From contig CAZUDK010000001.1 of NCBI GenBank assembly GCA_964618905.1, positions 13,982 to 77,981 on the forward strand: a stretch of 64,000 nt of DNA, read 5' to 3'. The translations under genes were made by a program, and so were the position numbers. This document shows, one piece after another, positions 11 through 58,072 of this stretch. Below the pieces are notes generated by a model. That model was not told where the DNA came from. It searched no databases and was given only the letters and a program-made list of their open reading frames with translations. The DNA is from an uncultured Candidatus Saccharibacteria bacterium (GTDB taxonomy: Bacteria; Patescibacteriota; Minisyncoccia; Phycocordibacterales; Zambryskibacteraceae). The first letter of the stretch is position 1. Each line of letters starts with the position of its first letter.

Positions 11-1813
11 CTACTCAAGTACAGCCTTTATTCTTCTGACACCTGCCGAAACAGATTCTTCTTTGATGATTTTGAACTTGCCAAGAACAGATGTGTTTTC
101 AACATGCGGCCCGCCGCAGAATTCTTTTGAATAAGCACTTTCGAGTGAATCGCCGATATAGTAAACACTGACTTCATCGGGATATTTCTGGTCGAAGAAA
201 TGCCTTGCGCCAATTTTCAGAGCTTCCTCCTTCGGCATGATCTTGCTTTGTACAGGCAAAGCTTCAGCGATTTTTTCATTCACAATATCTTCCACCTTTT
301 GCTTCTCTTCATCTGTCAGTTTGCGCGGAAAAGAAAAGTCAAAACGCAGACGCTCCGGAGTAATGTTACTGCCTTTCTGCCCCACTTCATCTCCAAGAAC
401 ATCATGCAAAGCTTGATGCAAGAGATGTGTCGCTGTGTGATACTTCACGCTTTTTTCTGAAGTATCAGCCAAGCCTCCTTTAAACTTTTGCTCTGCTCCG
501 GCGCGGCTCTTTTCTTGATGCTCTGAAAGCAGCTTCTTGAATCCTTCTACATCGACTTTAATACCTCGCTCATCGGCAATTTCAACAGTAAGCTCAATAG
601 GAAAGCCAAATGTCTGGTAAAGATCAAAAGCTTTTTCTCCGGAAATGCTTTTTTCCTCCACAGAATTTTCCAAACCGTAATCTGAGCCGATTTCTTTTTC
701 AAGCTGGGAAAGACCTAGCCTTAAAGTCTTCCTAAATTTTTCTTCTTCGCCGCTAATGTTTTTATCAATATCTTCACTTGCCTTTGCAAGTTCAGGGTAT
801 ACATCTTCGTATTTCGAGATAACTTCATCTGCCACATTAAATAATCCGCCCGGAATAATACCGAGTACATCCGCATACCTTACGGCACGCCTCAAGAGTC
901 TGCGCAATACATAACCTCTGTCAGTATTGGAAGGCACTACTCCGTCTGCAATCATAAAGACTGATGTCCTGATGTGGTCTGCTACTATTCTCTCTGCCTT
1001 TTCATCCGAAGTCGATGAAAGATCTTTAATTTCCGACATGATGGAATCAAAAAGGTCAGTCTCGTAGGCAGTCTTCTTGCCCTGCATGACTGATGCCATC
1101 CTTTCAAGTCCGGCTCCGGTATCAACATTTTGCTGAGAGAGCTTGCCGGCAACCTGTCCATCTTTTTTAAGATATTCCATGAAAACGTTGTTCCATATCT
1201 CAACCAAGTCTTCCCTCTCTACAGCACTGATGAAGTCAGACTTTGATAGATCTCCCAAACCTTGACCTGTTAAGTCATAAAACATTTCCGTGTCAGGTCC
1301 GGACGGGCCATCATTACCTGCCGACCACCAGTTATCATCTGCACCAAGCGGGTAGATCCTGTCCTCCGGTATCCCAAGGCTCATCCATATATCTTTTGAA
1401 GTTTGATCAAAATCAGCATTATCATCTCCTTCAAAAATAGTCACATACAGTTTTTTAGGATCAAGACCGAGACCTTCTTCATCTGAAGTAAGAAACTCAT
1501 AACTCCATTTAATAGCATCTTCTTTGAAATAATCCCCAAGAGACCAGTTACCCATCATTTCAAAAAAAGTGAAATGCCTGTTGTCTCCGATATCGTCCAA
1601 ATCTCCAGTTCGGACGCACTTTTGAATATTGACCAGCCTCCTGCCTTTCGGATGTTCCTTACCTAAAAGAAAGGGTGCGAGCGGCTGCATGCCGGCAGTG
1701 GTGAACAGAACAGATGAATCATTCTCAGGCACCAAAGGCGCTGAAGGGATCACAGCATGTCCCCTCTTTTCAAAAAAATCCAAAAATCTCTGCCTTATAT
1801 CCTTTGATTCCAT
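11..1813 (-). CDS. alaS: Alanyl-tRNA synthetase, short 600-aa form with catalytic, tRNA-recognition and editing domains but no C-Ala domain
   Basis: The N-terminus MESKDIRQRFLDFFEKRGHAVIPSAPLVP...FTTAGMQ is the class II AlaRS core. The C-terminal ...CGGPHVENTS is the editing-domain zinc motif. The stop codon is TAG at 11-13. Confidence 0.9.
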   Translation of the reverse strand: MESKDIRQRFLDFFEKRGHAVIPSAPLVPENDSSVLFTTAGMQPLAPFLLGKEHPKGRRLVNIQKCVRTGDLDDIGDNRHFTFFEMMGNWSLGDYFKEDAIKWSYEFLTSDEEGLGLDPKKLYVTIFEGDDNADFDQTSKDIWMSLGIPEDRIYPLGADDNWWSAGNDGPSGPDTEMFYDLTGQGLGDLSKSDFISAVEREDLVEIWNNVFMEYLKKDGQVAGKLSQQNVDTGAGLERMASVMQGKKTAYETDLFDSIMSEIKDLSSTSDEKAERIVADHIRTSVFMIADGVVPSNTDRGYVLRRLLRRAVRYADVLGIIPGGLFNVADEVISKYEDVYPELAKASEDIDKNISGEEEKFRKTLRLGLSQLEKEIGSDYGLENSVEEKSISGEKAFDLYQTFGFPIELTVEIADERGIKVDVEGFKKLLSEHQEKSRAGAEQKFKGGLADTSEKSVKYHTATHLLHQALHDVLGDEVGQKGSNITPERLRFDFSFPRKLTDEEKQKVEDIVNEKIAEALPVQSKIMPKEEALKIGARHFFDQKYPDEVSVYYIGDSLESAYSKEFCGGPHVENTSVLGKFKIIKEESVSAGVRRIKAVLE

Positions 1814-9056: not shown

Positions 9057-11891
9057 CTACGAAAGTACGATATTTATTATCTTGCCGGGCACATAAATAA
9101 CTCTTTCAACATTCTTACCGGAAAGCCATTTGGAAATTTCTGGCAAAACTTTAGCCCTCTGAAACGCTTCTTCTTCGCTTATATCTATAGACGAGTTAAA
9201 CTGCCCGCGCTTTCTGCCATTGACCTGCACCACTATCATAGCCTCGCTTGAGACAAGTTTGGAGCTGTCATATTCAGGCCATTTTTCTTGGTGTATTGAG
9301 CTGTCGTGGCCGAGTTTATTCCAAAGCTCTTCAGCAATATAAGGAGCGAAAGGTGCAAGAAGTTTAAGCAGTATTTCAAACTCTTGGCTTGAGACTTCTT
9401 CCCTCTTATCCATATCATTAACCAAAATCATCAAAGCAGAAACAGCAGTATTAAATCCAAGAACTTCTATATCTTCTGATACTTTCTTTATTGTCTCGTG
9501 CAGAAGCGAAGATTCTTCATTTCCTTCGGAAATCTTCTCGCTGATGCGCCAAATTTTTTCAAGGAAGCGGCGCGGACCGACGAGCGAGTCTTCGCTCCAG
9601 GCGATCGCCTGCTCAAACGGCCCCATGAACATCTCGTACAGGCGAAGGGTGTCCGCGCCGAATCTCTCCACTATATTGTCCGGATTAACCACATTGCCTT
9701 TCGACTTTGACATCTTCTCTCCGCCTTCGGCGAGAATAAGGCCGTGGGAAGTGCGCTTTTTGTATGGCTCGCTTACCGGAACCAAGCCTGAATCAAACAA
9801 AAATTTATTCCAAAAACGCGAATACAAAAGATGCAGAGTAGTATGCTCCATGCCGCCGTTATACCAGTCTACCGGCATCCAATATTCGAGCGCCTTCTCG
9901 GAAGCGAACCTCTTATCATTCTCCGGATCCGTATATCTTAGGAAGTACCAAGAAGAGCCTGCCCATTGGGGCATTACGTCTGTCTCTCTCTTGGCTTCGC
10001 CTCCGCATTTAGGGCAGGTGGTATTCACCCATTCTGTAATATTGGCCAAAGGTGACTCTCCCGTATCTGTAGGCTGATAATTTTCAACCTCGGGCAGCTT
10101 CACTGGCAAATCCTTCTCCGGCACCGGCTGCCAGCCGCACTCAATGCAATGAATCATAGGTATCGGCTCACCCCAATATCTCTGCCTTGAGAATATCCAA
10201 TCTCGGAGTTTAAAGGTTGTCTTCTTCTCTCCACCCGCAAATTTTACGATCTCATCTTTTGCTTCTTCTGAATTCCTGCCATTAAACTTTCCGGAATTTA
10301 CCAGCACTCCCTCGCCTGTGTAAGGACTCTCTCCTTTCTCAAGCCTCTCCAGCCAAATATCCATCTCGGCATGAGTCATGAATTCCATCGTCAGGTCTTT
10401 AAGATCCATCCATATTACCTCGGCAGTAGCATCTTCTTCAGCTGAAAGTTCATCCCTTTCTTCATTCTCAAGATCAAAGCTTACCAGAGTCGTATATGAA
10501 ATCCTGTTTTCATCCTTGTGCGCGGCAAAGTATTCAGCCCTGACTTCTCCGCCTAATATTTTTCCGTTTATTAGATTCTTGTATCCTGTCTCCTCGGCAA
10601 CTTCCCTCCTGGCCGCTTCAAGTACATCTTCGCCCTCTTCAATGCCGCCCATAGGGAAAGTGGTCCAAGGATGTTTCTTCCATCTCAAGACAATAACTTT
10701 GCCATCTTTCGGATTCCGCACTATTACCTGTACATTCTTCCTCTCAACAGCCTTCTTTCCAGCAACAGGCGGATTCCTTTTGTCTACCCTTTCAGGAATC
10801 ACGACTTCTCTTATAGGCAAGCCAAACTTTTGAGCGAACTCATAATCTCTCTCGTCGTGTGCAGGCACGGCCATGATGGCACCAGTGCCGTAGTGTGGCA
10901 GGACATAGTCCGCAATGAATACCGGAATCTCTTCCTTATTCGCTGGGTTTATCGCAGTTACTCCCTCAAGCTTCACACCTGTCTTCTCCTTGGTTTCGCT
11001 TGTGCGCTCTATTTCGGTCTTATTTTTCGCTTCCTTTATGTAGCTCTCTACTTCTTCCTTATTCGTTATTGCCAATTCATCACTTGCAAGCAGCGGATGC
11101 TCCGGTGCAAGCACCACGTAAGTTGCACCGAAGATAGTGTCAGGCCGAGTAGTGAATACTTTTATTTTTTCTTCTGAATCCTTTATCTGGAAATCTATTT
11201 CCGCACCCTCTGACTTTCCTATCCAATTTCTCTGCTGGATTTTAACCCTCTCCGGATAATCTACTTCATCCAAATCTTTAGCTAGACGGTCAGCATACTT
11301 GGTAATTGCCAGCATCCACTGCTCCTTTTCTCTCTTCTCTACCAGTGTTCCGCATCTCTCGCACCTGCCATCTATGACCTCTTCATTGGCAAGAACAATT
11401 TTATCCTTCGGGCACCAGTTCACTAGGCTCTTAGCCTTATATGCCAGGTCTTTCTCAAAAAACTTAAGAAAAATCCACTGAGTCCACTTGTAGTACTTAG
11501 GGTCCGTAGTATTTATTTCTCTCGACCAGTCAAATGAAAGTCCAAGAGATTTAAGCTGGCGGCGGAAGTTGTCGGTATTCTCTTTTGTAACTACTCGCGG
11601 GTCTTTGCCTGTTTTAAGTGCATAATTTTCTGTCGGCAAACCGAAAGCATCCCAACCTATAGGATAAAGAACATTAAAACCTTCCATCCTTCGCTTGCGC
11701 GAGACAATATCTATAGCTGTATAGCTTCTCACGTGTCCGACATGAAGCCCGTCGCCAGACGGATATGGAAATTCTACAAGTGTGTAATACTTTGGCTTTT
11801 TGGAAATCTCTTCGGCTCTATAGATGCCAGTCTCTTCCCATTTTTGCTGCCACTTACTCTCTATTTCTTTCGGGTCGTACTCTTTTGACAT
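9057..11891 (-). CDS. leuS: Leucyl-tRNA synthetase carrying an inserted NUDIX domain
   Basis: HVGHVRSY is the HIGH motif and KMSKS is present. The CP1 editing-domain end AHDERDYEFAQKFGLPI is there. About 135 extra residues (aa 378-515) contain the canonical Nudix box GGIEEGEDVLEAARREVAEETG before the leucyl-specific GVLVNSGKFNG. Confidence 0.95.
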   Translation of the reverse strand: MSKEYDPKEIESKWQQKWEETGIYRAEEISKKPKYYTLVEFPYPSGDGLHVGHVRSYTAIDIVSRKRRMEGFNVLYPIGWDAFGLPTENYALKTGKDPRVVTKENTDNFRRQLKSLGLSFDWSREINTTDPKYYKWTQWIFLKFFEKDLAYKAKSLVNWCPKDKIVLANEEVIDGRCERCGTLVEKREKEQWMLAITKYADRLAKDLDEVDYPERVKIQQRNWIGKSEGAEIDFQIKDSEEKIKVFTTRPDTIFGATYVVLAPEHPLLASDELAITNKEEVESYIKEAKNKTEIERTSETKEKTGVKLEGVTAINPANKEEIPVFIADYVLPHYGTGAIMAVPAHDERDYEFAQKFGLPIREVVIPERVDKRNPPVAGKKAVERKNVQVIVRNPKDGKVIVLRWKKHPWTTFPMGGIEEGEDVLEAARREVAEETGYKNLINGKILGGEVRAEYFAAHKDENRISYTTLVSFDLENEERDELSAEEDATAEVIWMDLKDLTMEFMTHAEMDIWLERLEKGESPYTGEGVLVNSGKFNGRNSEEAKDEIVKFAGGEKKTTFKLRDWIFSRQRYWGEPIPMIHCIECGWQPVPEKDLPVKLPEVENYQPTDTGESPLANITEWVNTTCPKCGGEAKRETDVMPQWAGSSWYFLRYTDPENDKRFASEKALEYWMPVDWYNGGMEHTTLHLLYSRFWNKFLFDSGLVPVSEPYKKRTSHGLILAEGGEKMSKSKGNVVNPDNIVERFGADTLRLYEMFMGPFEQAIAWSEDSLVGPRRFLEKIWRISEKISEGNEESSLLHETIKKVSEDIEVLGFNTAVSALMILVNDMDKREEVSSQEFEILLKLLAPFAPYIAEELWNKLGHDSSIHQEKWPEYDSSKLVSSEAMIVVQVNGRKRGQFNSSIDISEEEAFQRAKVLPEISKWLSGKNVERVIYVPGKIINIVLS

Positions 11892-12912: not shown

Positions 12913-13734
12913 TTATATTAGAAATTCGATAACATCTCCATCTTGAACAATGTATTCTTTGCCTTCAGTTCGTATCCAGCCTTTCTCGCGCGCGGCCGCG
13001 CGCGAGCCAGCTTCCAAAAACTTGTCGTAGTGAATTACCTCTGCCCGAATAAATTTATCCTGAAAGTCTGAGTGAATAGACTTACCTGCTTCTGGAGCAG
13101 TTGCGCCTCTCTTAGTAGTCCAAGCTCTGCTCTCTTTTTCTCCAGTAGTAAAGAAAGTTATAAGATCGAGAAGTTTATAGGATTCAAGAATCAACTTATC
13201 AAGACCTGTACCGAAAACCGGATCGACTTCTATAAAAGGTCCAGGAATCTTTTCTTTGAATTCCGGTGAAATCTGCCCTGACACTTCCGAGACATTCAGC
13301 ACGTAAAGAGTAGGTTTCTGTATGCCAGCTTTCTCAAGTTCGAGATTAATGATTTCTATGTCGAAGAGTGGATCAACTTTGTTATGTACATGGATGATGT
13401 CAGAGTCTTCAAACGTACGAACCATCATAATGATTGCATCCACCTCTCTTATATGCGAAAGGAATTTATTTCCGAGACCTTCGCCTTCTGCTGCGCCGCG
13501 CACCAAGCCGGCAATATCTACAAACTCAACAACAGCAGGAATTTTCTGCTTTGACTTACTCATGTCAGAGAGCTTATCGAGCCTCTCGTCTGGCACCGGC
13601 ACAATACCAACAGACGGATCTATGGTGCAGAACGGATAGTTCTCCGCCGGCACTTCTTTCTTTGTAAGTGCATTAAAAAGCGTGGACTTCCCCACATTCG
13701 GCAAACCGACGATTCCGACAGTCAATTTAGACAT
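12913..13734 (-). CDS. ychF: Ribosome-binding ATPase YchF, short 273-aa form
   Basis: GLPNVGKST is the G1 motif and DIAGLV is G3. The NVSE motif is present. A C-terminal TGS domain is present. The helical insert is shortened. Confidence 0.85.
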
Positions 13735-13815: not shown

Positions 13816-16800
13816 TTATCCCGACAATTCCTGCATTTCCAACTCTGAGATTTTTTGCTTCAATTCCACGATCTTCTGCTGTATTTGCAATATTAGCTGC
13901 TGTCTCAATATGTCTGTTGATGTTCCTGTATATACAGGAGATGCGATCGGATGAGTAAGAGAAACCATGTAAGTGGTTGCAGACCAACCAGCAAGACCAT
14001 TATCGAACTTAACTTCTACCCACTGGTAACCGTCTGCAGTTATAGGACCGGAGAGCACTGAACCTTGAACTCCATTTGGAACAACACTTAGCACCTGAGA
14101 TAGCAAGGATGGTCCTGATCTTATATTGAGACCGGAAGTACTTTGAATTCTATCTGAGGCTGAAATTATCGAAGAAGTTGGCGTTTGAGTAACTACTGGA
14201 GTTACAGAAACCGCAGTAGGAGTGTAAGAAGTAGCAGTAGTAGTAAGACCTGACAAGTAAGAAGTTGCAGACCATCCTGTATATCCGTTGCTGTACTGGA
14301 CTTTAACCCAAGTATATCCATCAGCCACAACCGGCTCGCTCGATACAACTGTACCTGTGGAATTTATTGGAGCTACAGCCAATACCGAGGCAGAGAGCGA
14401 AGGCTGAGATCTAACATTCAATGCCGCTAGAGTTTTTACAGTGCCTTGCATAGCTTCTACTGGAGTAAGTTCCTCGAAATCTGAATCATCCAACTTACTC
14501 AGATCAAAATCAGCACCATCTCCATAATCAATACCATAACCGATTCCACCGGAAGAATGAGTGGAAGGATTAGTATCTTCTGTAGGAGCTTCTACCACTT
14601 CGTAGACTGAGAAGCCTGGAACTGTAAATATGAGTGTACCTGAAGTCTTGCTGTAAGAATTTATGGTGCAGTTTGTGCAGAGCTGTCCATCCTTGTATAC
14701 CACCGGATTATCCATATCTATGTCATACATGGTTATAAGAGCCGGCTCATTGAGTTCAGGGAGTTTATCTGACTCAATCGTTATTCTGTTCTTTTCTATA
14801 TGTACATATGAATCAAGATTCAAGCGCTCCCCGTCTCTTACTAGGGATACAGATTCCAGGAATTTTATCTTTCCTTTATTGTTTACACCTAATTCGAAAT
14901 TAACAACATTTTTAAGATCTTTGTCTGAAAGATCAGACTTAATGTTGAATTCATTGGCGATAGGAGGAACACATCCGCTTTGATTTACAGTAGAAACGAG
15001 TGCAGCAGGAGTGCCCGGACATTTATCCTTACCATCATTAACACCGTCATTATCGCTATCACCTTGTGGGAACATAGAAGGCAAAACAACAGTTACAGCT
15101 CTATGGGATGATTTTCCTCCTGCTGATGCATATATCACGACCGTACCGACAGAATGCCCTGTTACCAAACCAGTAGAAGAGACGCTGGCTATAACGCCGT
15201 TAGTTGTAGTCCAATTAATAGGACTGCCTGTAAGGTTTCCAGATGAATCCTTAGCTACAGCACTGAGTTGTATTGTATCACCTGTCTCTACGGTCAGGAA
15301 AGCATCATTCGGCGACATGGATATAGAATCAACAGGACGAGCATTCGAAACATTGAATACCACAGGAGAGGATATCGTAACATTTCCGTATGCATCGCGA
15401 GCAACTGCAGTAATAGTGTGTTGGCCGTTCGTTAAATTGGCTGTGTCATACAAAATCTTGTATGGCGAATGTATTTCTTCGGATCCGGCATTGGAACCAT
15501 CTATCTTGAATCTAACTCCTGCTATTCCTTTATTGTCAGAGGCGGATGCTTTCAATTCTATTGTTCCTGAAACGAAATCGCCTGAAGATATAGATTCCAC
15601 TGATACCTCAGGATATTCATTATCTACTTCTACAGGAGGTGGCGTATTGTTATCTGAGCCTGTAGGTATATCTGTGCCGTAAGCTGCGGCAAGGGTAGCA
15701 GCATTTATATTTAATCTCTTATGAACATCGAAACAAGACTGACCAGGAATGTCGTTAACTCCAGGCACAATAGCTCCGCAAGGGAATGCTCCTGTGCGTA
15801 GGTCCCACAATGGCTGATTTGTCAGCTTTCCATCCACATATCTATATAAGATATTAGCACCTATATCTTCCCCATTCTTTCCTGCGCCTTTAAGCGGAGA
15901 ATCATCTGGTATGTATATAGGTGTAGCTGCAAGTTTAGGATTAACACTGATGTTTCTTCTATAGATTCCGGAAGTATCTGAGATATTCTCTGAAGGTTGT
16001 ACGGAATTATTGTATATATCAGAATTCTCCATCAATGCTTTGTATTTAGGAGTTGAAATAGAGAGAATATTTCCAGAGGTACCCAATACTAATGCGTTTG
16101 TCACCGTAAAGGCACATTCATATCCATCAGGAATGCCTGCACATATCTTGTCTGTACCTTTATCGCTAGGTGCTTCGTTTGCCAGGACAGCCTCAGGTGT
16201 ATTTATGATTGTTACATTTTCTATATGCGTACCGCCGGTTCCTGTAAAACCTGTACCGGCTCGAAGCATAAAAGGATGCTGTGTGCCTATAACCAGATAA
16301 TCCTTATATACGTTTCCATGAGGACATCGCAAACCAAGATCCTCCCCTGTTACATTCACAGGTCTGCAATCGACATAACCTGCAAATACTCCTCCGATAG
16401 ATATATTTCCTAACAGTCTATTGTTATGTCCTCCCGGAAGACCATTAAAGAGCAGATTTGGGCCGGCATGGATCTCTATTCCTCTGTGTTGCTCTCCATC
16501 GAGTATGGAGTTTTCAACTATTACGTTTGAGGCTGGGTAGAGTGCTATGGCCTCATCCGGCGCATTAGGCCTGCCGTTGTTGTACAATCTTCTTATTGTT
16601 ACATATTGTGAACGACTGACACTAAGTCCATGTCTTTGGTAATCATAAATTTCTGAATCTTCAAGGAGAACATACTCACTGTCCAGAATCTTTATAGGGT
16701 GGTCATTAAAGTATCTATTTGGATGAGTAGCTAGAAGTTTCTTAAGTGTAATGTTTGAGCTACGAACCACCTGGAATACGTCTCTCTGCTTACCTCCTGC

Positions 16801-18273
16801 TGCTTCTGTCCTATCAACACTTGAACCTCTCAGACCAATGATATCCCAGTAAGAACAGTGCGACATCTCAAAAGCTTGATGCTCACCTCCATCTGCCGAA
16901 AGAAATGCCCTTCTTTCGCTTTGGGCTATCATGGTGATATGAGCATTTTCAGTACCATTTCTAGCATTAGCAGTACAGTCAATATCCGGCATGCCTGTAG
17001 TTTGCGGAGTATAGATGCCGTTCATTAATACGAGGATATCTCCAGGCCTGAGCTTTGGTATTGCTTTGCTGAAGGTCTTAAGAGGAGACACATCAGTAAG
17101 TCCGGAGTTGGAATCCGAACCGGTTGGAGAAATATAGTAAGCAGACCCAGAAGCATCAGGAATCTGACCAGTTTGATTCTTTGTAGAAATATTTACCTGA
17201 ATGCTTTCTGTGTTGCTTGAAGCTTTCTTTATGTCAGCACTTAAAGTATGCTGCCCGTCAGAAACAGACAGAGAGTCCCAAGTTGCCGTATAAGGAGCGG
17301 ATGTATCAGCAGAGCCAATATTTTTTCCATCTACTTTAAATTGAACACTCTCTACACGATCATTATCTGAAGGATCAACCTCCATTACTATTATGCCGGA
17401 GACCACCTGCCCTGAAACTGGTGAAGAGAACAAACTTACAGAATTTTGTTCAGAAGAATTTCCTGTGTCTGTACCTGCATCTTCATCATTACCTGGAGCT
17501 CTCACAGCAACAGCAGATGCCACCCATGATTGAGTAGCGCTTGTATTTAAAAGTTTCCAAGAGAAAGAAGCGCTTTCTACATTAGAGAACTTTCCTGCAA
17601 GACCCATGATACGCCTGCCGCTGGCAGAGTCTCCATCACCATCTAGTGTCCACAACACATTTTGTTTTCCGGGATTTGAAATTCCTAGATCTCTCTGGAC
17701 TATAAAGTTGCCAATCAAAAGATCAGTGGTGGCAGATGAAAGAGAAAGATTCGCAGTAGAGGTGTTTTGATTTCCTGAAACAGTGTATACCTGTCCGAAA
17801 GAATTATTAAGATTAGCTCCACTGATACTTAACACACCTGCTACAAAAGTAGTGTCCTTAGACACTGCCACATCAACGTTAGCAGTTCCTGTTGGAGGAT
17901 TTTTCAGATACCAAATTTCATTTCCGACGATATTAGATGACTGATTAAGAGGGGTTAGATCAATGCCTGAGTACTTTACGGAATTAATAGTTCCGCTTCT
18001 GTTGCCTAAAAGAACTATTAGTAGTCGATTAGTATCATTATTAGGAACTGTGTGTGGGAAAGAAAACTTATTTCCTATTGTTGAATACCCAGATTCAAAA
18101 GAAGAAGTTGAAGTTATTACAGGTGCAGAAATTTCAGAAGACAGCACATCTAATGTTGCAGCTGTAGGCAGCGCTTCATCATTAAAATTAAAATCTTTGA
18201 TTGCAAAAGAAGCAGTAAATACAACAACCGATATTCCTAAAATTAGAAATAAATTTTTACTTAAGGTACTCAT
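13816..18273 (-). CDS. Giant secreted or cell-surface protein of 1485 aa: signal anchor, Ig-like domains, parallel beta-helix, Big_2, TSP3 calcium-binding motif, two SH3b domains and a C-terminal coiled coil
   Basis: The N-terminus MSTLSKNLFLILGISVVVFTASFA is a signal or anchor sequence. The repeated SPY...DT...NGQHT...A.D..GN pattern fits Ig-like domains. The NxxG-rich repeats (e.g. VTIRRLYNNG...SNVIVENSILDG) fit a beta-helix. DSDNDGVNDGKDKCP is a TSP3 motif. Two NVRSQPS / NIRSGPS ...GW.AT.Y segments are SH3b domains. Confidence 0.85.
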   Translation of the reverse strand: MSTLSKNLFLILGISVVVFTASFAIKDFNFNDEALPTAATLDVLSSEISAPVITSTSSFESGYSTIGNKFSFPHTVPNNDTNRLLIVLLGNRSGTINSVKYSGIDLTPLNQSSNIVGNEIWYLKNPPTGTANVDVAVSKDTTFVAGVLSISGANLNNSFGQVYTVSGNQNTSTANLSLSSATTDLLIGNFIVQRDLGISNPGKQNVLWTLDGDGDSASGRRIMGLAGKFSNVESASFSWKLLNTSATQSWVASAVAVRAPGNDEDAGTDTGNSSEQNSVSLFSSPVSGQVVSGIIVMEVDPSDNDRVESVQFKVDGKNIGSADTSAPYTATWDSLSVSDGQHTLSADIKKASSNTESIQVNISTKNQTGQIPDASGSAYYISPTGSDSNSGLTDVSPLKTFSKAIPKLRPGDILVLMNGIYTPQTTGMPDIDCTANARNGTENAHITMIAQSERRAFLSADGGEHQAFEMSHCSYWDIIGLRGSSVDRTEAAGGKQRDVFQVVRSSNITLKKLLATHPNRYFNDHPIKILDSEYVLLEDSEIYDYQRHGLSVSRSQYVTIRRLYNNGRPNAPDEAIALYPASNVIVENSILDGEQHRGIEIHAGPNLLFNGLPGGHNNRLLGNISIGGVFAGYVDCRPVNVTGEDLGLRCPHGNVYKDYLVIGTQHPFMLRAGTGFTGTGGTHIENVTIINTPEAVLANEAPSDKGTDKICAGIPDGYECAFTVTNALVLGTSGNILSISTPKYKALMENSDIYNNSVQPSENISDTSGIYRRNISVNPKLAATPIYIPDDSPLKGAGKNGEDIGANILYRYVDGKLTNQPLWDLRTGAFPCGAIVPGVNDIPGQSCFDVHKRLNINAATLAAAYGTDIPTGSDNNTPPPVEVDNEYPEVSVESISSGDFVSGTIELKASASDNKGIAGVRFKIDGSNAGSEEIHSPYKILYDTANLTNGQHTITAVARDAYGNVTISSPVVFNVSNARPVDSISMSPNDAFLTVETGDTIQLSAVAKDSSGNLTGSPINWTTTNGVIASVSSTGLVTGHSVGTVVIYASAGGKSSHRAVTVVLPSMFPQGDSDNDGVNDGKDKCPGTPAALVSTVNQSGCVPPIANEFNIKSDLSDKDLKNVVNFELGVNNKGKIKFLESVSLVRDGERLNLDSYVHIEKNRITIESDKLPELNEPALITMYDIDMDNPVVYKDGQLCTNCTINSYSKTSGTLIFTVPGFSVYEVVEAPTEDTNPSTHSSGGIGYGIDYGDGADFDLSKLDDSDFEELTPVEAMQGTVKTLAALNVRSQPSLSASVLAVAPINSTGTVVSSEPVVADGYTWVKVQYSNGYTGWSATSYLSGLTTTATSYTPTAVSVTPVVTQTPTSSIISASDRIQSTSGLNIRSGPSLLSQVLSVVPNGVQGSVLSGPITADGYQWVEVKFDNGLAGWSATTYMVSLTHPIASPVYTGTSTDILRQQLILQIQQKIVELKQKISELEMQELSG

Positions 18274-56189: not shown

Positions 56190-56672
56190 ATGAAAAGCAA
56201 TCTTGCTTCAGCAGGTATTGCTTGGCGGTTAAATAACGGCGAGCTTGAAGTCCTGGTTTTGGACTCATACACTACCATCGAATCGTGGGAGAAAAGGAGC
56301 CACCCAAGAACCAAGTTCCCAGGAGGAGGAAACCGAGAATATGCCAACGAAACCGCGAGACATACTCTCAATAGAGAGTATGTCCACGAGACAGGACTGA
56401 CATTCCCCGAGAATGCAATCCTGATCTGGAGAAATAGGAAGCCTAGTACATACCCGAAAGGAGAGACTCATATCCAATATTTCTATGCCGCTCCCGAAAA
56501 GGAAGTTACAGGTCCCATGCGGACTGATGTGATCCAGGACGGCAATGAATGGCTATCCCCTCCTTACTGGATGTCTGCTTCTGTGCTCTCGAAGAGCAAG
56601 CAGCTTCTATACTGGCATAGGCGTCCTCTGATCGAGCTTATGAAGTTAATTGACAGAGGATTACTCCTCTAA
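56190..56672 (+). CDS. NUDIX-like hydrolase with a partly degenerate Nudix box
   Basis: GGGNREYANETARHTLNREYVHETG matches Gx5Ex7REUxEExGU, except that the second catalytic E is H. Confidence 0.45.
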   Translation: MKSNLASAGIAWRLNNGELEVLVLDSYTTIESWEKRSHPRTKFPGGGNREYANETARHTLNREYVHETGLTFPENAILIWRNRKPSTYPKGETHIQYFYAAPEKEVTGPMRTDVIQDGNEWLSPPYWMSASVLSKSKQLLYWHRRPLIELMKLIDRGLLL

Positions 56673-56739: not shown

Positions 56740-57504
56740 ATGTCCAAACTAGATACAGCGCCATACAAGGGAGTCAGGGATTTTTATCCTGAAGATATGG
56801 TTATCCAGAACTATATTTTTGATACCTGGAAAAAGGTTTCTAAAGATTTTAATTATCAAGAATATTCTGCTTCGCCTCTCGAACCGACTGAGATTTATAC
56901 TGAAAAATCAGGATCGGAGATAGTTAACGAACAGACTTTCACCTTTATCGACAGAGGGGGGCGCTCTGTCACCCTGCGGCCGGAGATGACCCCGACGCTT
57001 GCCCGAATGATCGCCGCCAAGAGACGCAATCTCAAATACCCCCTACGCTGGTTCTCCATTCCAAACCTGTTCAGATACGAGAGGCCGCAGAGAGGGCGCA
57101 AGCGCGAACACTGGCAACTTAACTGCGACCTAGTAGGTGTTGCCGGCCTTGATGGTGACAGAGAAGTCATGTCCCTCGCTTATGCAATTATGAAAGAGTT
57201 TGGAGCAAAAGATGAAGACTTCGAAATAAGAGTGAACAACTGCAATCCGGAAGATTTCAAAGACATAGCTCCAAATATCGTATTCGATGAATCTCTTGCC
57301 AGAGGCCAAGCTTATTACACTGGACCGGTTTTTGAATTCTTTGATACTAATCCTGAGAACAGCCGCTCAATATGCGGTGGAGGAAGGTACGATAAACTTT
57401 TGGAGATTTTTGATGTTGAGCCTCTGCCTATTGCTGGCTTTGGCATGGGAGATATCACTCTGCGAGATTTCCTTGAGACTCATAAGCTAGGACCGTATGC
57501 GTAA
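56740..57504 (+). CDS. HisRS-like class II aaRS catalytic core lacking the anticodon-binding domain
   Basis: Motif 1/2-like TLRPEMT and WFSIPNLFRYERPQRGRKREHWQ are present. Motif 3 is GGGRYD and GFGMG follows. It ends about 15 aa after that, at 254 aa. Confidence 0.65.
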   Translation: MSKLDTAPYKGVRDFYPEDMVIQNYIFDTWKKVSKDFNYQEYSASPLEPTEIYTEKSGSEIVNEQTFTFIDRGGRSVTLRPEMTPTLARMIAAKRRNLKYPLRWFSIPNLFRYERPQRGRKREHWQLNCDLVGVAGLDGDREVMSLAYAIMKEFGAKDEDFEIRVNNCNPEDFKDIAPNIVFDESLARGQAYYTGPVFEFFDTNPENSRSICGGGRYDKLLEIFDVEPLPIAGFGMGDITLRDFLETHKLGPYA

Positions 57505-58072
57505 AATAGTTTTCGACATTGAGACTCGTAACGTCTTTGCAGACGTTGGAAAAAACGACCCTGCTCTTTTGGATATATCACTCGTAGCTATTCATGACTC
57601 CGAGACCGGAGAGTACTCTTCTTATCTTCAAGAAGAACTGTCAAAGCTGTGGCCCATCATAGAACGAGCAGACATGCTCATAGGCTTCAACTCGGACCAT
57701 TTCGACATTCCCCTGCTAAACAAATACTATCCTGGCGACCTCAAAGAGATCAGATCCCTTGATATTCTAAAGGAGATAAAGAATTCATATGGAAGAAGAA
57801 TGCGCCTCGATCAGCTTGCCGAAGGAACTCTTGGCTTGAACAAATCAGGGCACGGGCTTGATGCTATAGACTGGTGGAAGAAAGGTGAAATAGAAAAAAT
57901 CCGCAAATATTGCATTGATGATGTTAAGCTGACAAAAGACATCTATGACTATGCAATGAAAAACAACAAGCTGTTCTTTAAGGAAGGTAAAGACTTGCAT
58001 GAGATAACTCTCGACACCTCAGACTGGGAAAGCGAAGGTGACCATAAACTGACTTTCACTCTGCCATTTTAA
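57497..58072 (+). CDS. DEDDh 3'-5' exonuclease (DnaQ / oligoribonuclease-like)
   Basis: FDIET is Exo I. GFNSDHFDIPLL is Exo II. GHGLDAIDW...YCIDDV is Exo III. The start overlaps the upstream HisRS-like stop by 8 nt. Confidence 0.75.
   Translation: MRKIVFDIETRNVFADVGKNDPALLDISLVAIHDSETGEYSSYLQEELSKLWPIIERADMLIGFNSDHFDIPLLNKYYPGDLKEIRSLDILKEIKNSYGRRMRLDQLAEGTLGLNKSGHGLDAIDWWKKGEIEKIRKYCIDDVKLTKDIYDYAMKNNKLFFKEGKDLHEITLDTSDWESEGDHKLTFTLPF

Follow-up and report, generated by a model that had tools for sequence, protein, structure and literature searches.

Does a leucyl-tRNA synthetase (LeuRS) of the Patescibacteria carry a second, intact enzyme inside its proofreading domain and, if so, what might that enzyme do there? 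Few enzymes are as conserved as the aminoacyl-tRNA synthetases (aaRSs), and it is, to our knowledge, rare for one of them to have a catalytic domain nested within it. The original prediction, made on the 64-kb stretch of DNA analysed here (the window), was that a Nudix hydrolase domain with an intact catalytic motif interrupts leuS. We have followed it up by alignment, profile searches, structure prediction and a survey of homologues.

The host is a complete LeuRS

The host protein is encoded by leuS (positions 9057–11891 of the window, minus strand, as are all features described below), an open reading frame for a bacterial-type LeuRS of 944 residues. It scores above the cutoff of the NCBIfam model TIGR00396 (leuS_bact; 1036 bits versus 548) and is matched by the Thermus thermophilus LeuRS (PDB entry 1h3n) with an E-value of 4.5e-239 in HMMER. 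Its full-length AF2 model has a pLDDT of 89.9, and the top Foldseek match of this model is 2bte_A (TM 0.76/0.81), with 4aq7 and related structures also resembling it. The ORF is a bona fide, otherwise complete bacterial LeuRS. The synthetic site has its HIGH signature (HVGH, aa 50–53; 11733–11744) and its KMSKS signature (aa 726–730; 9702–9716). The N-terminal part of the CP1 editing domain (aa 221–364; 10800–11231; PF13603 profile positions 1–148) contains the T-rich motif TTRPDT (aa 247–252; 11136–11153), the GTG loop (aa 335–337; 10881–10889) and AHDERD with the catalytic aspartate Asp346 (aa 344–349; 10845–10862), and the C-terminal part resumes past the insert (aa 521–560; 10212–10331), as located by PF13603 and by alignment to residues 374–417 of the Thermus enzyme (Tt). 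The HIGH, KMSKS and T-rich motifs, the GTG loop and the catalytic aspartate are all near-invariant in an alignment of 112 sequences. The Nudix domain is therefore not a substitute for a lost editing function, and its role as a stand-in for a decayed editing site is ruled out.

The leucine-specific domain of about 54 residues is absent from the window LeuRS, where a short peptide precedes KMSKS in the alignment to 1h3n. The minimal LeuRS of Mycoplasma mobile also does without this domain, and its published description mentions a tetrapeptide (PMC3643597). The M. mobile enzyme (PDB entry 3ziu, 637 aa) has lost CP1, however, whereas that of the window retains the full CP1 with the Nudix domain in addition.

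A Nudix domain nested in CP1

In the HMMER alignment to 1h3n, aa 3–364 correspond to Tt 2–362 and aa 521–724 to Tt 374–582, which confirms the insertion and fixes its boundaries: the nested Nudix domain spans aa 365–520 (10332–10799), in place of the Tt 363–373 loop. The extra segment that had been announced is thus real, but its size of about 135 residues was underestimated, as 156 residues stand where the Thermus LeuRS has 11 (a net gain of about 145). The span first reported, 10347–10760, corresponds to aa 378–515 on the translation. The insert had been placed between the end of CP1, given as AHDERDYEFAQKFGLPI (aa 344–360), and the following segment GVLVNSGKFNG (aa 528–538). This placement has to be corrected: PF13603 is split by the insert, with profile positions 1–148 at aa 221–372 and 150–183 at aa 518–551, and its presence on both flanks puts the insert within CP1. 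By topology, the insert occupies the variable I4b loop between the core helices α2 and α3, and the Nudix domain lies beside the entrance to the editing pocket. The GC content of the insert (0.44–0.45) is similar to that of the remainder of the gene. A recent foreign insertion, an intein or a mobile element is ruled out by the unbroken frame, this gene-like composition, the lack of a Hint or endonuclease domain and vertical conservation in the clade.

The CP1 site between α2 and α3, at the edge of the opening to the editing pocket, is known to vary between lineages, being occupied by I4b in bacteria and by I4ae in eukarya and archaea; it is a non-conserved peripheral loop (PMC3747510). The insertion point is shared with the window LeuRS, but I4b is a loop and I4ae a helix, without an enzymatic fold, whereas the window LeuRS has a complete 156-residue enzyme domain there. 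The junction residues Pro366, Asp370, Pro374 and Gly528 are near-invariant in the alignment and the junctions are modelled by AF2 at a pLDDT of 88–93. Junctions so conserved and so confidently modelled suggest that the domain may have co-adapted with its host and be held in one orientation next to the editing pocket.

The Pfam NUDIX profile (PF00293) matches aa 384–514 of the whole protein with 62.7 bits (E 4.7e-17; gathering cutoff 21.1) and the insert alone with 68.3 bits, which is far beyond chance. A regular expression locates the Nudix box, GGIEEGEDVLEAARREVAEETGY, at aa 415–437 (10581–10649), with Glu421, Arg429, Glu430, Glu433, Glu434 and Gly436; the string as first quoted, GGIEEGEDVLEAARREVAEETG, is aa 415–436 (10584–10649). 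This is the single strict match to GX5EX7REUXEEXGU in the protein, and a six-frame scan of the whole window, with a loosened pattern included, found no other Nudix box. In an alignment of 29 sequences with 26–46% identity, Gly415, Gly416, Glu421, Arg429, Glu430, Glu433, Glu434 and Gly436 are invariant, as are Arg384 and Lys459. The predicted structure and a fold search confirm the α/β/α sandwich of the Nudix fold, with an uncharacterised MutT/nudix protein of Enterococcus faecalis (2azw) as the nearest neighbour. Profile score and fold agree, and the original claims of an intact Nudix domain inside LeuRS and of a box with its catalytic glutamates are borne out: residues 365–520 form a self-contained Nudix-fold domain in which the catalytic motif is intact. 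The domain is acidic, with a pI of 4.9 (family median about 5.7) and a net charge of −10. The window also holds a second, degenerate Nudix ORF, relatives of which were not found in a metagenome scan.

Downstream of the box, the alignment delimits an X-loop region, AEYFAAHKDENR (aa 452–463; 10503–10538), in which the aromatic pair Tyr454/Phe455, at +17/+18 from the box, is followed by His458-Lys459-x-x-Asn462-Arg463. The specificity-determining X-loop of Nudix enzymes corresponds to a spot about 17 residues downstream of the box (PMC5389931). Lys459, Asn462 and Arg463 are invariant or near-invariant, also in free-standing and ProRS-embedded relatives. Small single-domain Nudix enzymes (2AZW, MutT, NUDT15/MTH1, NudI, Ndx1 and the Ap4A hydrolases 1F3Y and 3I7U) are only 17–25% identical to the insert, which differs from them in its own X-loop signature, (Y/F)(F/Y)AxHKxxNR, and in being nested rather than free-standing.

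Distribution and relatives of the domain

The same layout is present in all 120 of the closest homologues. The strict box is found in 118 of them despite a median identity of the inserts of only about 55%, which argues for purifying selection on the catalytic residues. The layout was further recovered in 137 stretches taken from species-representative genomes; the 80 retained are mostly labelled Patescibacteria/Paceibacterota. The layout is not rare: it is vertically conserved through a large Patescibacteria clade (Paceibacteria/Parcubacteria-type), of which it is the standard LeuRS. In public protein collections the fusion LeuRSs already carry the PF00293 tag. Their automated names are often ‘class I tRNA ligase family protein’ and even ‘RdgB/HAM1 family pyrophosphatase’. 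Full-text searches of the literature returned no description of a LeuRS–Nudix fusion, as the original prediction had supposed.

By combining HMMs and sequence landmarks, we catalogued 288 Nudix domains of this subfamily. LeuRS is the host of 235 of them, at three sites, in a sample of LeuRSs that is biased by the way in which sequences were collected, and the sole other host protein seen in the census is the class II ProRS. The ProRS–Nudix fusion is rare: one further fragment (P0280) came from a word-index search, and in a metagenome scan the 11 ProRS loci inspected, of 80 related ones, had no Nudix box (most matches are of about 480 aa). The domain of the window belongs to site 2, where the strict box is found in 185 of 206 domains, whereas many site-1 copies, as well as free-standing copies of the P0008 type, have an altered box (E7 to Q, R15 to A). 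These altered boxes, which indicate that the full catalytic machinery is not always needed, would suit a non-catalytic or regulatory module that tunes how the tRNA 3′ end reaches the editing site, or that couples LeuRS to nucleotide levels; so would the conserved, confidently modelled junctions and a place equivalent to that of I4b/I4ae, which border or cover the editing pocket (PMC3747510). We nevertheless regard such a role as unlikely, as the conservation of all catalytic residues at site 2 is unexpected for a purely structural or sensor function and as free-standing homologues exist.

Among the latter, P0008 is a protein of 157 aa with 38% identity, encoded by its own gene on a contig of 68 kb. 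The free-standing Nudix of locus L081 lies within an island of small stand-alone hydrolases comprising four NUDIX, a Ham1, a Ser_hydrolase and a HAD; its stand-alone Ser_hydrolase and Ham1 are 28–41% and 30% identical, respectively, to LeuRS-embedded copies. Sister LeuRSs hold two or three Nudix domains, plus Ham1/ITPase, HAD or Ser_hydrolase inserts, at other sites, the Ham1-bearing form being found on six contigs. Comparison of the identities of LeuRS body and insert (81 and 35% for P0016, 72 and 30% for P0097, 71 and 33% for P0069) suggests that the insert behaves like a cassette.

Possible substrates

None of the curated Nudix subfamily models of NCBIfam reaches its cutoff for the insert, with RppH, YtkD, NudE, NudI and MutT all below threshold, as is TIGR00052. 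The MutT 8-oxo-dGTPase models (TIGR00586/NF008044), with a cutoff of 97.9 bits, give 16.1 bits. The best RppH score, 30.2 bits, falls far short of the cutoff of 116 (116–259 among the models), and the matches cover only aa 24–79 of the insert query, essentially the box region. These scores weigh against an RNA-directed enzyme, namely an RppH-like 5′-pyrophosphohydrolase or a decapping enzyme acting on tRNALeu or on other RNA brought by the synthetase. The acidity of the domain also argues against RNA binding. In addition, the CP1 editing site of LeuRS binds the 3′ end of the tRNA and not its 5′ end, and we consider this activity quite unlikely. As for ADP-ribose pyrophosphatases, Dunn et al. 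are said to have placed their specific proline at +15 in 1999; position +15 is Ala452 here, and there is no proline in aa 438–463. A conserved X-loop proline downstream of the box is described for these enzymes (PMC5389931). The NADH pyrophosphatase motif SQPWPFPxS is likewise absent from the insert sequence.

Aminoacyl-tRNA synthetases make dinucleoside polyphosphates when ATP or another NTP attacks the aminoacyl-adenylate. The nested domain might hydrolyse the Ap4A, Ap3A or Ap4N made by its own synthetase and so provide a built-in sink for alarmones or by-products. This would fit the independent capture of one Nudix subfamily by two unrelated synthetases, the class I LeuRS, with as many as three sites, and the class II ProRS, even if ProRS–Nudix is rare. 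The lupin Ap4A hydrolase (1f3y) is the top PDB profile match (E 7.6e-10, with coverage limited to the domain's first half), and the Aquifex Ap4A hydrolase is also among the matches; however, the E-values for very different Nudix classes range only from 1e-10 to 1e-5 and mostly concern the box region. In ApnA hydrolases, an X-loop tyrosine about 16–18 residues past the box stacks on the adenine (PMC5389931), and Tyr454 stands at this place (+17), but it is not conserved: the column is Y/F and, of the 29 diverse members, no more than about 18 have a tyrosine at +17/+18. The invariant basic residues Arg384, Lys459 and Arg463 would suit a long polyphosphate. Conversely, the ApnA-hydrolase family models all remain below threshold, Ap4A diffuses freely, which leaves no obvious kinetic gain by fusion, and this hypothesis does not account for the co-inserted Ham1, HAD and Ser_hydrolase domains. 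The recurrent aaRS hosts, the +17 tyrosine and the match to the plant Ap4A hydrolase, none of them diagnostic, keep Ap4A/ApnN plausible as substrates, and we retain their clearance as a tentative alternative. We rejected the naming of a substrate from NCBIfam, phmmer or PDB profiles, in view of the sub-threshold scores and of the flat list of Nudix classes; neither the sequence nor the fold singles out one substrate.

A pre-transfer editing site, at which aminoacyl-adenylates formed by mis-activation (norvalyl- or isoleucyl-AMP, for example) would be hydrolysed, has only topology in its favour, the domain being located within the editing domain of an aaRS that faces near-cognate amino acids. 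ProRS, the other Nudix host, also edits. The reaction would be chemically atypical for a Nudix enzyme: aminoacyl-AMPs belong to the mixed acyl-phosphate anhydrides and not to the nucleoside diphosphates linked to X, and we know of no Nudix enzyme using them. With a canonical post-transfer site that is fully conserved, there is no evident need for a second one, and free-standing members of the subfamily occur away from any synthetase. We hold this hypothesis to be highly improbable.

An autonomous enzyme in a permissive loop?

The reading that we favour, with a probability of about one half, is that the domain is a ‘house-cleaning’ pyrophosphatase for nucleotides, which works autonomously and is housed in a permissive loop of LeuRS. 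The domain would be an active Mg2+-dependent pyrophosphohydrolase using Glu430, Glu433 and Glu434 of the Nudix helix, probably aided by Glu486, as its conserved residues suggest, while the basic residues Arg384, Lys459 and Arg463 would hold the polyphosphate chain. It would act autonomously on free nucleotide polyphosphates, either damaged or non-canonical NTPs or dinucleoside polyphosphates, apart from leucylation and tRNA editing. LeuRS would offer it a home in that the peripheral CP1 loops may tolerate large insertions, and being joined to an enzyme that is essential and constitutively made would guarantee its expression in a minimal genome. As free-standing relatives exist, the Nudix domain can work alone. 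Nudix, Ham1/ITPase, HAD and Ser_hydrolase domains belong to generic families that clean up nucleotides or metabolites, and the occurrence of the last three as inserts in sister LeuRSs speaks for a general clean-up of nucleotides rather than for a chemistry specific to the synthetase. Three observations fit less well with a mere passenger. The near-exclusive aaRS hosts (235 of 288 domains in LeuRS) argue against pure hitch-hiking, which predicts no such bias; the presence of two or three copies of one Nudix subfamily per LeuRS is unexpected for a simple housekeeping passenger; and the conserved junctions, with the co-adapted orientation that they suggest, also count against it.

Known fusions provide some points of comparison. 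Like the window LeuRS, IleRS–GNAT (NF040702) and NadM–Nudix (NF003790) join an adenylate-handling Rossmann-type enzyme to an unrelated catalytic module; NadM–Nudix (NMN adenylyltransferase/ADP-ribose pyrophosphatase) even combines a HIGH-class adenylyltransferase with a Nudix domain. Both, however, are terminal fusions involving other subfamilies (their models score 15–21 bits against cutoffs above 350), whereas the Nudix domain of the window is nested in the editing domain, with a functional coupling that is only proposed. In its widest form, such a coupling would make the dedicated Nudix subfamily a third hydrolytic site wired to aminoacylation in Paceibacteria-type Patescibacteria, destroying by-products or damaged ATP analogues (Ap4A/ApnN alarmones, non-canonical adenylates) at source, and LeuRS a multi-enzyme scaffold for nucleotide quality control (with as many as three Nudix domains, besides ITPase, HAD and serine hydrolase) in minimal cells. 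This is a speculative proposal, which we think possible rather than probable.

Implications

A whole candidate-phyla lineage has, as its standard LeuRS, an enzyme with an intact second enzyme domain beside the proofreading pocket. The finding bears on the automated annotation of the fusion proteins. Should the Nudix domain prove to be coupled to the chemistry of the synthetase, it would represent a new kind of quality-control site in an aaRS and would offer a natural system in which to address what the Ap4A made by aaRSs does physiologically, a long-debated question. Should it be a passenger only, it would illustrate the way in which ultra-small genomes fit house-cleaning enzymes into the permissive loops of essential proteins, and would show that the I4 and β1–β2 loops of CP1 accept the insertion of whole domains, which is of use for aaRS engineering.

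The host protein

The window leuS gene (9057–11891, minus strand) is an uninterrupted ORF whose 944-residue product is a genuine bacterial LeuRS. It scores 1036 bits against the NCBIfam model TIGR00396 (cutoff 548) and aligns with Thermus thermophilus LeuRS (PDB entry 1h3n) at E = 4.5e-239, and its full-length AlphaFold model (pLDDT 89.9, pTM 0.79) superposes on LeuRS–tRNA complexes with TM-scores of 0.76/0.81–0.83. The HIGH (HVGH, aa 50–53) and KMSKS (aa 726–730) signatures are present, as are the T-rich editing motif TTRPDT (aa 247–252), the GTG loop (aa 335–337) and the catalytic aspartate (Asp346 within AHDERD), and all are near-invariant in an alignment of 112 sequences. A Nudix domain acting as a substitute for a decayed editing site is therefore ruled out. 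Hydrolysis of aminoacyl-adenylate by this domain, put forward in the original prediction, would be atypical chemistry for a Nudix enzyme and unneeded in a LeuRS with an intact editing site; we consider it very improbable.

The leucine-specific domain (about 54 residues; Thermus 583–636) has no counterpart in the window LeuRS, in which just HGLILAEGGE lies ahead of KMSKS (aa 716–732, window 9696–9746). This is similar to Mycoplasma mobile LeuRS, in which a tetrapeptide takes the place of the domain (PMC3643597). Two genes upstream of leuS, on the same strand at higher window coordinates, a YchF-type GTPase ORF (12913–13734, minus strand) of just 273 aa encodes a G domain and a C-terminal YchF domain with little between them. 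A 1485-aa protein (13816–18273, minus strand) with Big_7, Big_2 and SH3_3 domains and a β-helix has a sub-threshold match to the Nup98-type autopeptidase S59 domain (27.7 versus 28.4 bits). An alanyl-tRNA synthetase ORF (11–1813, minus strand) is just 600 aa long, with PF01411 and tRNA_SAD ending at aa 595, and apparently lacks the usual C-terminal region.

A Nudix domain nested in CP1

A Nudix domain in this LeuRS had been predicted from the sequence, and the prediction is confirmed: the strings quoted for it are all found, including AHDERDYEFAQKFGLPI (aa 344–360) and GVLVNSGKFNG (aa 528–538). The Pfam NUDIX model PF00293 matches aa 384–514 with 62.7 bits (E = 4.7e-17, gathering cutoff 21.1), far beyond chance, and the span first proposed (10347–10760), searched alone, gives 68.3 bits. 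The protein has a single match to the strict Nudix pattern, the box GGIEEGEDVLEAARREVAEETG(Y) (aa 415–437, window 10581–10649, minus strand); a six-frame scan of the window, also with a loosened pattern, found no Nudix box beyond the LeuRS insert site. The insert modelled alone reaches a pLDDT of 93.7, and its best 50 Foldseek matches in the PDB are all Nudix enzymes (NUDT15, RppH, MutT, MTH1, Ndx1 and CDP-Chase). The insert is thus a true Nudix domain.

Elsewhere in the window, a free-standing 160-aa Nudix-like ORF (56190–56672, plus strand; PF00293 28.9 bits) carries a degenerate box, REYVHETG, and falls outside the LeuRS-insert subfamily; a metagenome scan found no relatives of it. A 254-aa HisRS ORF (56740–57504, plus strand), with the catalytic domain and motif 3 and no anticodon-binding domain, follows 67 bp downstream, and directly after it, with an 8 bp overlap, comes an RNase_H-superfamily exonuclease ORF (57497–58072, plus strand).

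The boundaries first proposed required revision. HMMER aligns aa 3–364 with Thermus 2–362 and aa 521–724 with Thermus 374–582, so the insert comprises aa 365–520 (window 10332–10799), 156 residues in place of an 11-residue Thermus loop. Positions 1–148 of the Pfam editing-domain model PF13603 match ahead of the insert and positions 150–183 behind it, at aa 518–551; the Nudix domain therefore lies inside CP1 and not, as originally placed, after it. In the published CP1 topology, I2b comprises three helices between β3 and β4, and I4b is a non-conserved loop between α2 and α3 (PMC3747510); in Streptococcus pneumoniae LeuRS an editing-site ligand lies about 4 Å from I4b (PMC3747510). The predicted secondary structure reproduces this topology, including I2b and I4b: β1 (226–236), β2 (242–247), α1 (250–255), β3 (258–261), three helices (266–296), β4–β6, α2 (347–356), the Nudix domain, α3 (541–551) and β7 (555–560). 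The Nudix domain therefore occupies the hot-spot for I4 insertions, next to the editing pocket. The junction residues Pro366, Asp370, Pro374 and Gly528 are near-invariant, the junctions have pLDDT values of 88–93 in the full-length model, and the base composition of the insert is like that of the rest of leuS.

Conservation and specificity marks

Across 29 aligned Nudix domains (26–46% identity), Arg384, Gly415, Gly416, Glu421, Arg429, Glu430, Glu433, Glu434, Gly436 and Lys459 are invariant, and Asn462, Arg463, Leu474, Glu486 and Trp494 are at least 90% conserved. The domain is complete and under purifying selection, with an intact catalytic motif, and we infer an active Mg2+-dependent pyrophosphohydrolase. 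The best-conserved region outside the box, (Y/F)(F/Y)AxH458-K459-x-x-N462-R463, starts 17 residues past it, at the position of the X-loop, a determinant of substrate specificity in Nudix enzymes (PMC5389931). Neither the ADP-ribose proline (its X-loop position is Ala452) nor the NADH motif was found in the insert, and no curated subfamily model reached its cutoff (the best, RppH, gave 30 bits versus 116). Judged by sequence and profiles, the known marks give no clear answer and assign no substrate.

The main rival reading, also raised in the original prediction, is that the domain clears Ap4A/ApnN made by the synthetase. It would fit the near-exclusive occurrence of the subfamily in two unrelated aaRS classes, the conservation of basic residues, the ApnA tyrosine (Tyr454 in the window protein, but not conserved across the subfamily) and the first rank of lupin Ap4A hydrolase in a PDB profile search (E = 7.6e-10, within a flat list), although none of these is diagnostic. 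We regard it as possible but doubtful.

Distribution and cassette behaviour

The architecture is lineage-wide. PF00293 is found in all 120 best LeuRS homologues (56–76% identical) and the strict box in 118 of them; in the 60 homologues with both flanking anchors found, these lie a constant distance of about 180 residues apart. With each GTDB species represented by a single genome, a scan turned up relatives in 137 stretches. Most of the 80 retained come from MAGs that bear the label Patescibacteria or that of a sublineage (Paceibacterota, Kaiser-, Taylor-, Yonath-, Wildermuth-, Yanofsky-, Moran- or Parcubacteria); we regard a few odd taxon labels as naming or binning noise. At least 41 of these loci hold a full-length continuous LeuRS ORF with the insert. 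In a representative library of 1.84 billion proteins, the insert matched 644 clusters at E ≤ 1e-3, of which 164 reached E ≤ 1e-10. In public annotation, proteins of this architecture go by the name 'class I tRNA ligase family protein' or 'leucyl-tRNA synthetase'.

Longer LeuRS relatives (1089–1336 aa) carry additional modules. The extra-module sisters (P0039, P0113, P0083, P0175, P0134, P0138 and P0164; 923–1336 aa) combine two or three Nudix domains with a Ser_hydrolase (α/β-hydrolase; P0039 and P0113), HAD phosphatase (P0083) or Ham1/ITPase (P0175) module at several different sites. The Ham1-bearing form is known from six sequences on separate contigs, which PGAP misnames 'RdgB/HAM1 family pyrophosphatase'. 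The second or third Nudix domain sits at site S1, the β1–β2 hairpin directly before the T-rich motif, or rarely after CP1. Our purpose-built HMM detected 288 domains in 279 proteins: 206 at S2 (the site of the window protein), 27 at S1, two at a third LeuRS site (S3), 38 free-standing and 15 unplaced. The box is canonical in 185 of the S2 domains versus only 12 of those at S1, and an E7-to-Q, R15-to-A variant is common to S1 domains and free-standing proteins of the P0008 type. In a neighbour-joining tree, S1, S2 and free-standing copies are intermixed in several clades. Some closely similar LeuRS bodies hold very different inserts (P0016, 81% body and 35% insert identity to the window protein; P0097, 72% and 30%; P0069, 71% and 33%), which suggests cassette-like replacement or duplication, or rapid divergence, at the same site.

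Free-standing P0008 is encoded within an island on contig L081 (1713–12375), where some 15 small genes on one strand specify chiefly hydrolases (four NUDIX, Ham1, Ser_hydrolase, HAD, His_Phos_1, GDPD, a 2H-type enzyme and LDcluster4), along with a kinase and reductases. These hydrolase families are those embedded in LeuRS elsewhere; the Ser_hydrolase is 28–41% and the Ham1 30% identical to embedded copies, with a weaker match for HAD (23%, E = 1.8e-7). A class II ProRS also hosts the HKxxNR subfamily, between its anticodon-binding and C-terminal domains (P0243, aa 398–515; P0229/P0281; P0280). This ProRS architecture is rare, being absent from all 11 loci inspected among the 80 related ones fetched.

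Functional implications

We favour, with a probability of about 0.5, an autonomous nucleotide 'house-cleaning' role, because the domain also occurs free-standing and behaves like an exchangeable cassette, its co-inserts (Ham1, HAD, Ser_hydrolase and extra Nudix) are generic sanitizing hydrolases that are also found clustered as genes of their own, insertion took place in loops known to be permissive, and a pI of 4.9 and net charge of −10 make the domain acidic. A regulatory or cap role, and after it an RNA-directed one, both seem unlikely beside such house-cleaning.

A complete Nudix domain is thus nested at the CP1 I4b loop of an otherwise complete LeuRS. The architecture is abundant in metagenomic data, yet full-text literature searches found no published description of it; an accessory enzyme here sits nested in an aaRS, and the Nudix domains form a distinct subfamily.
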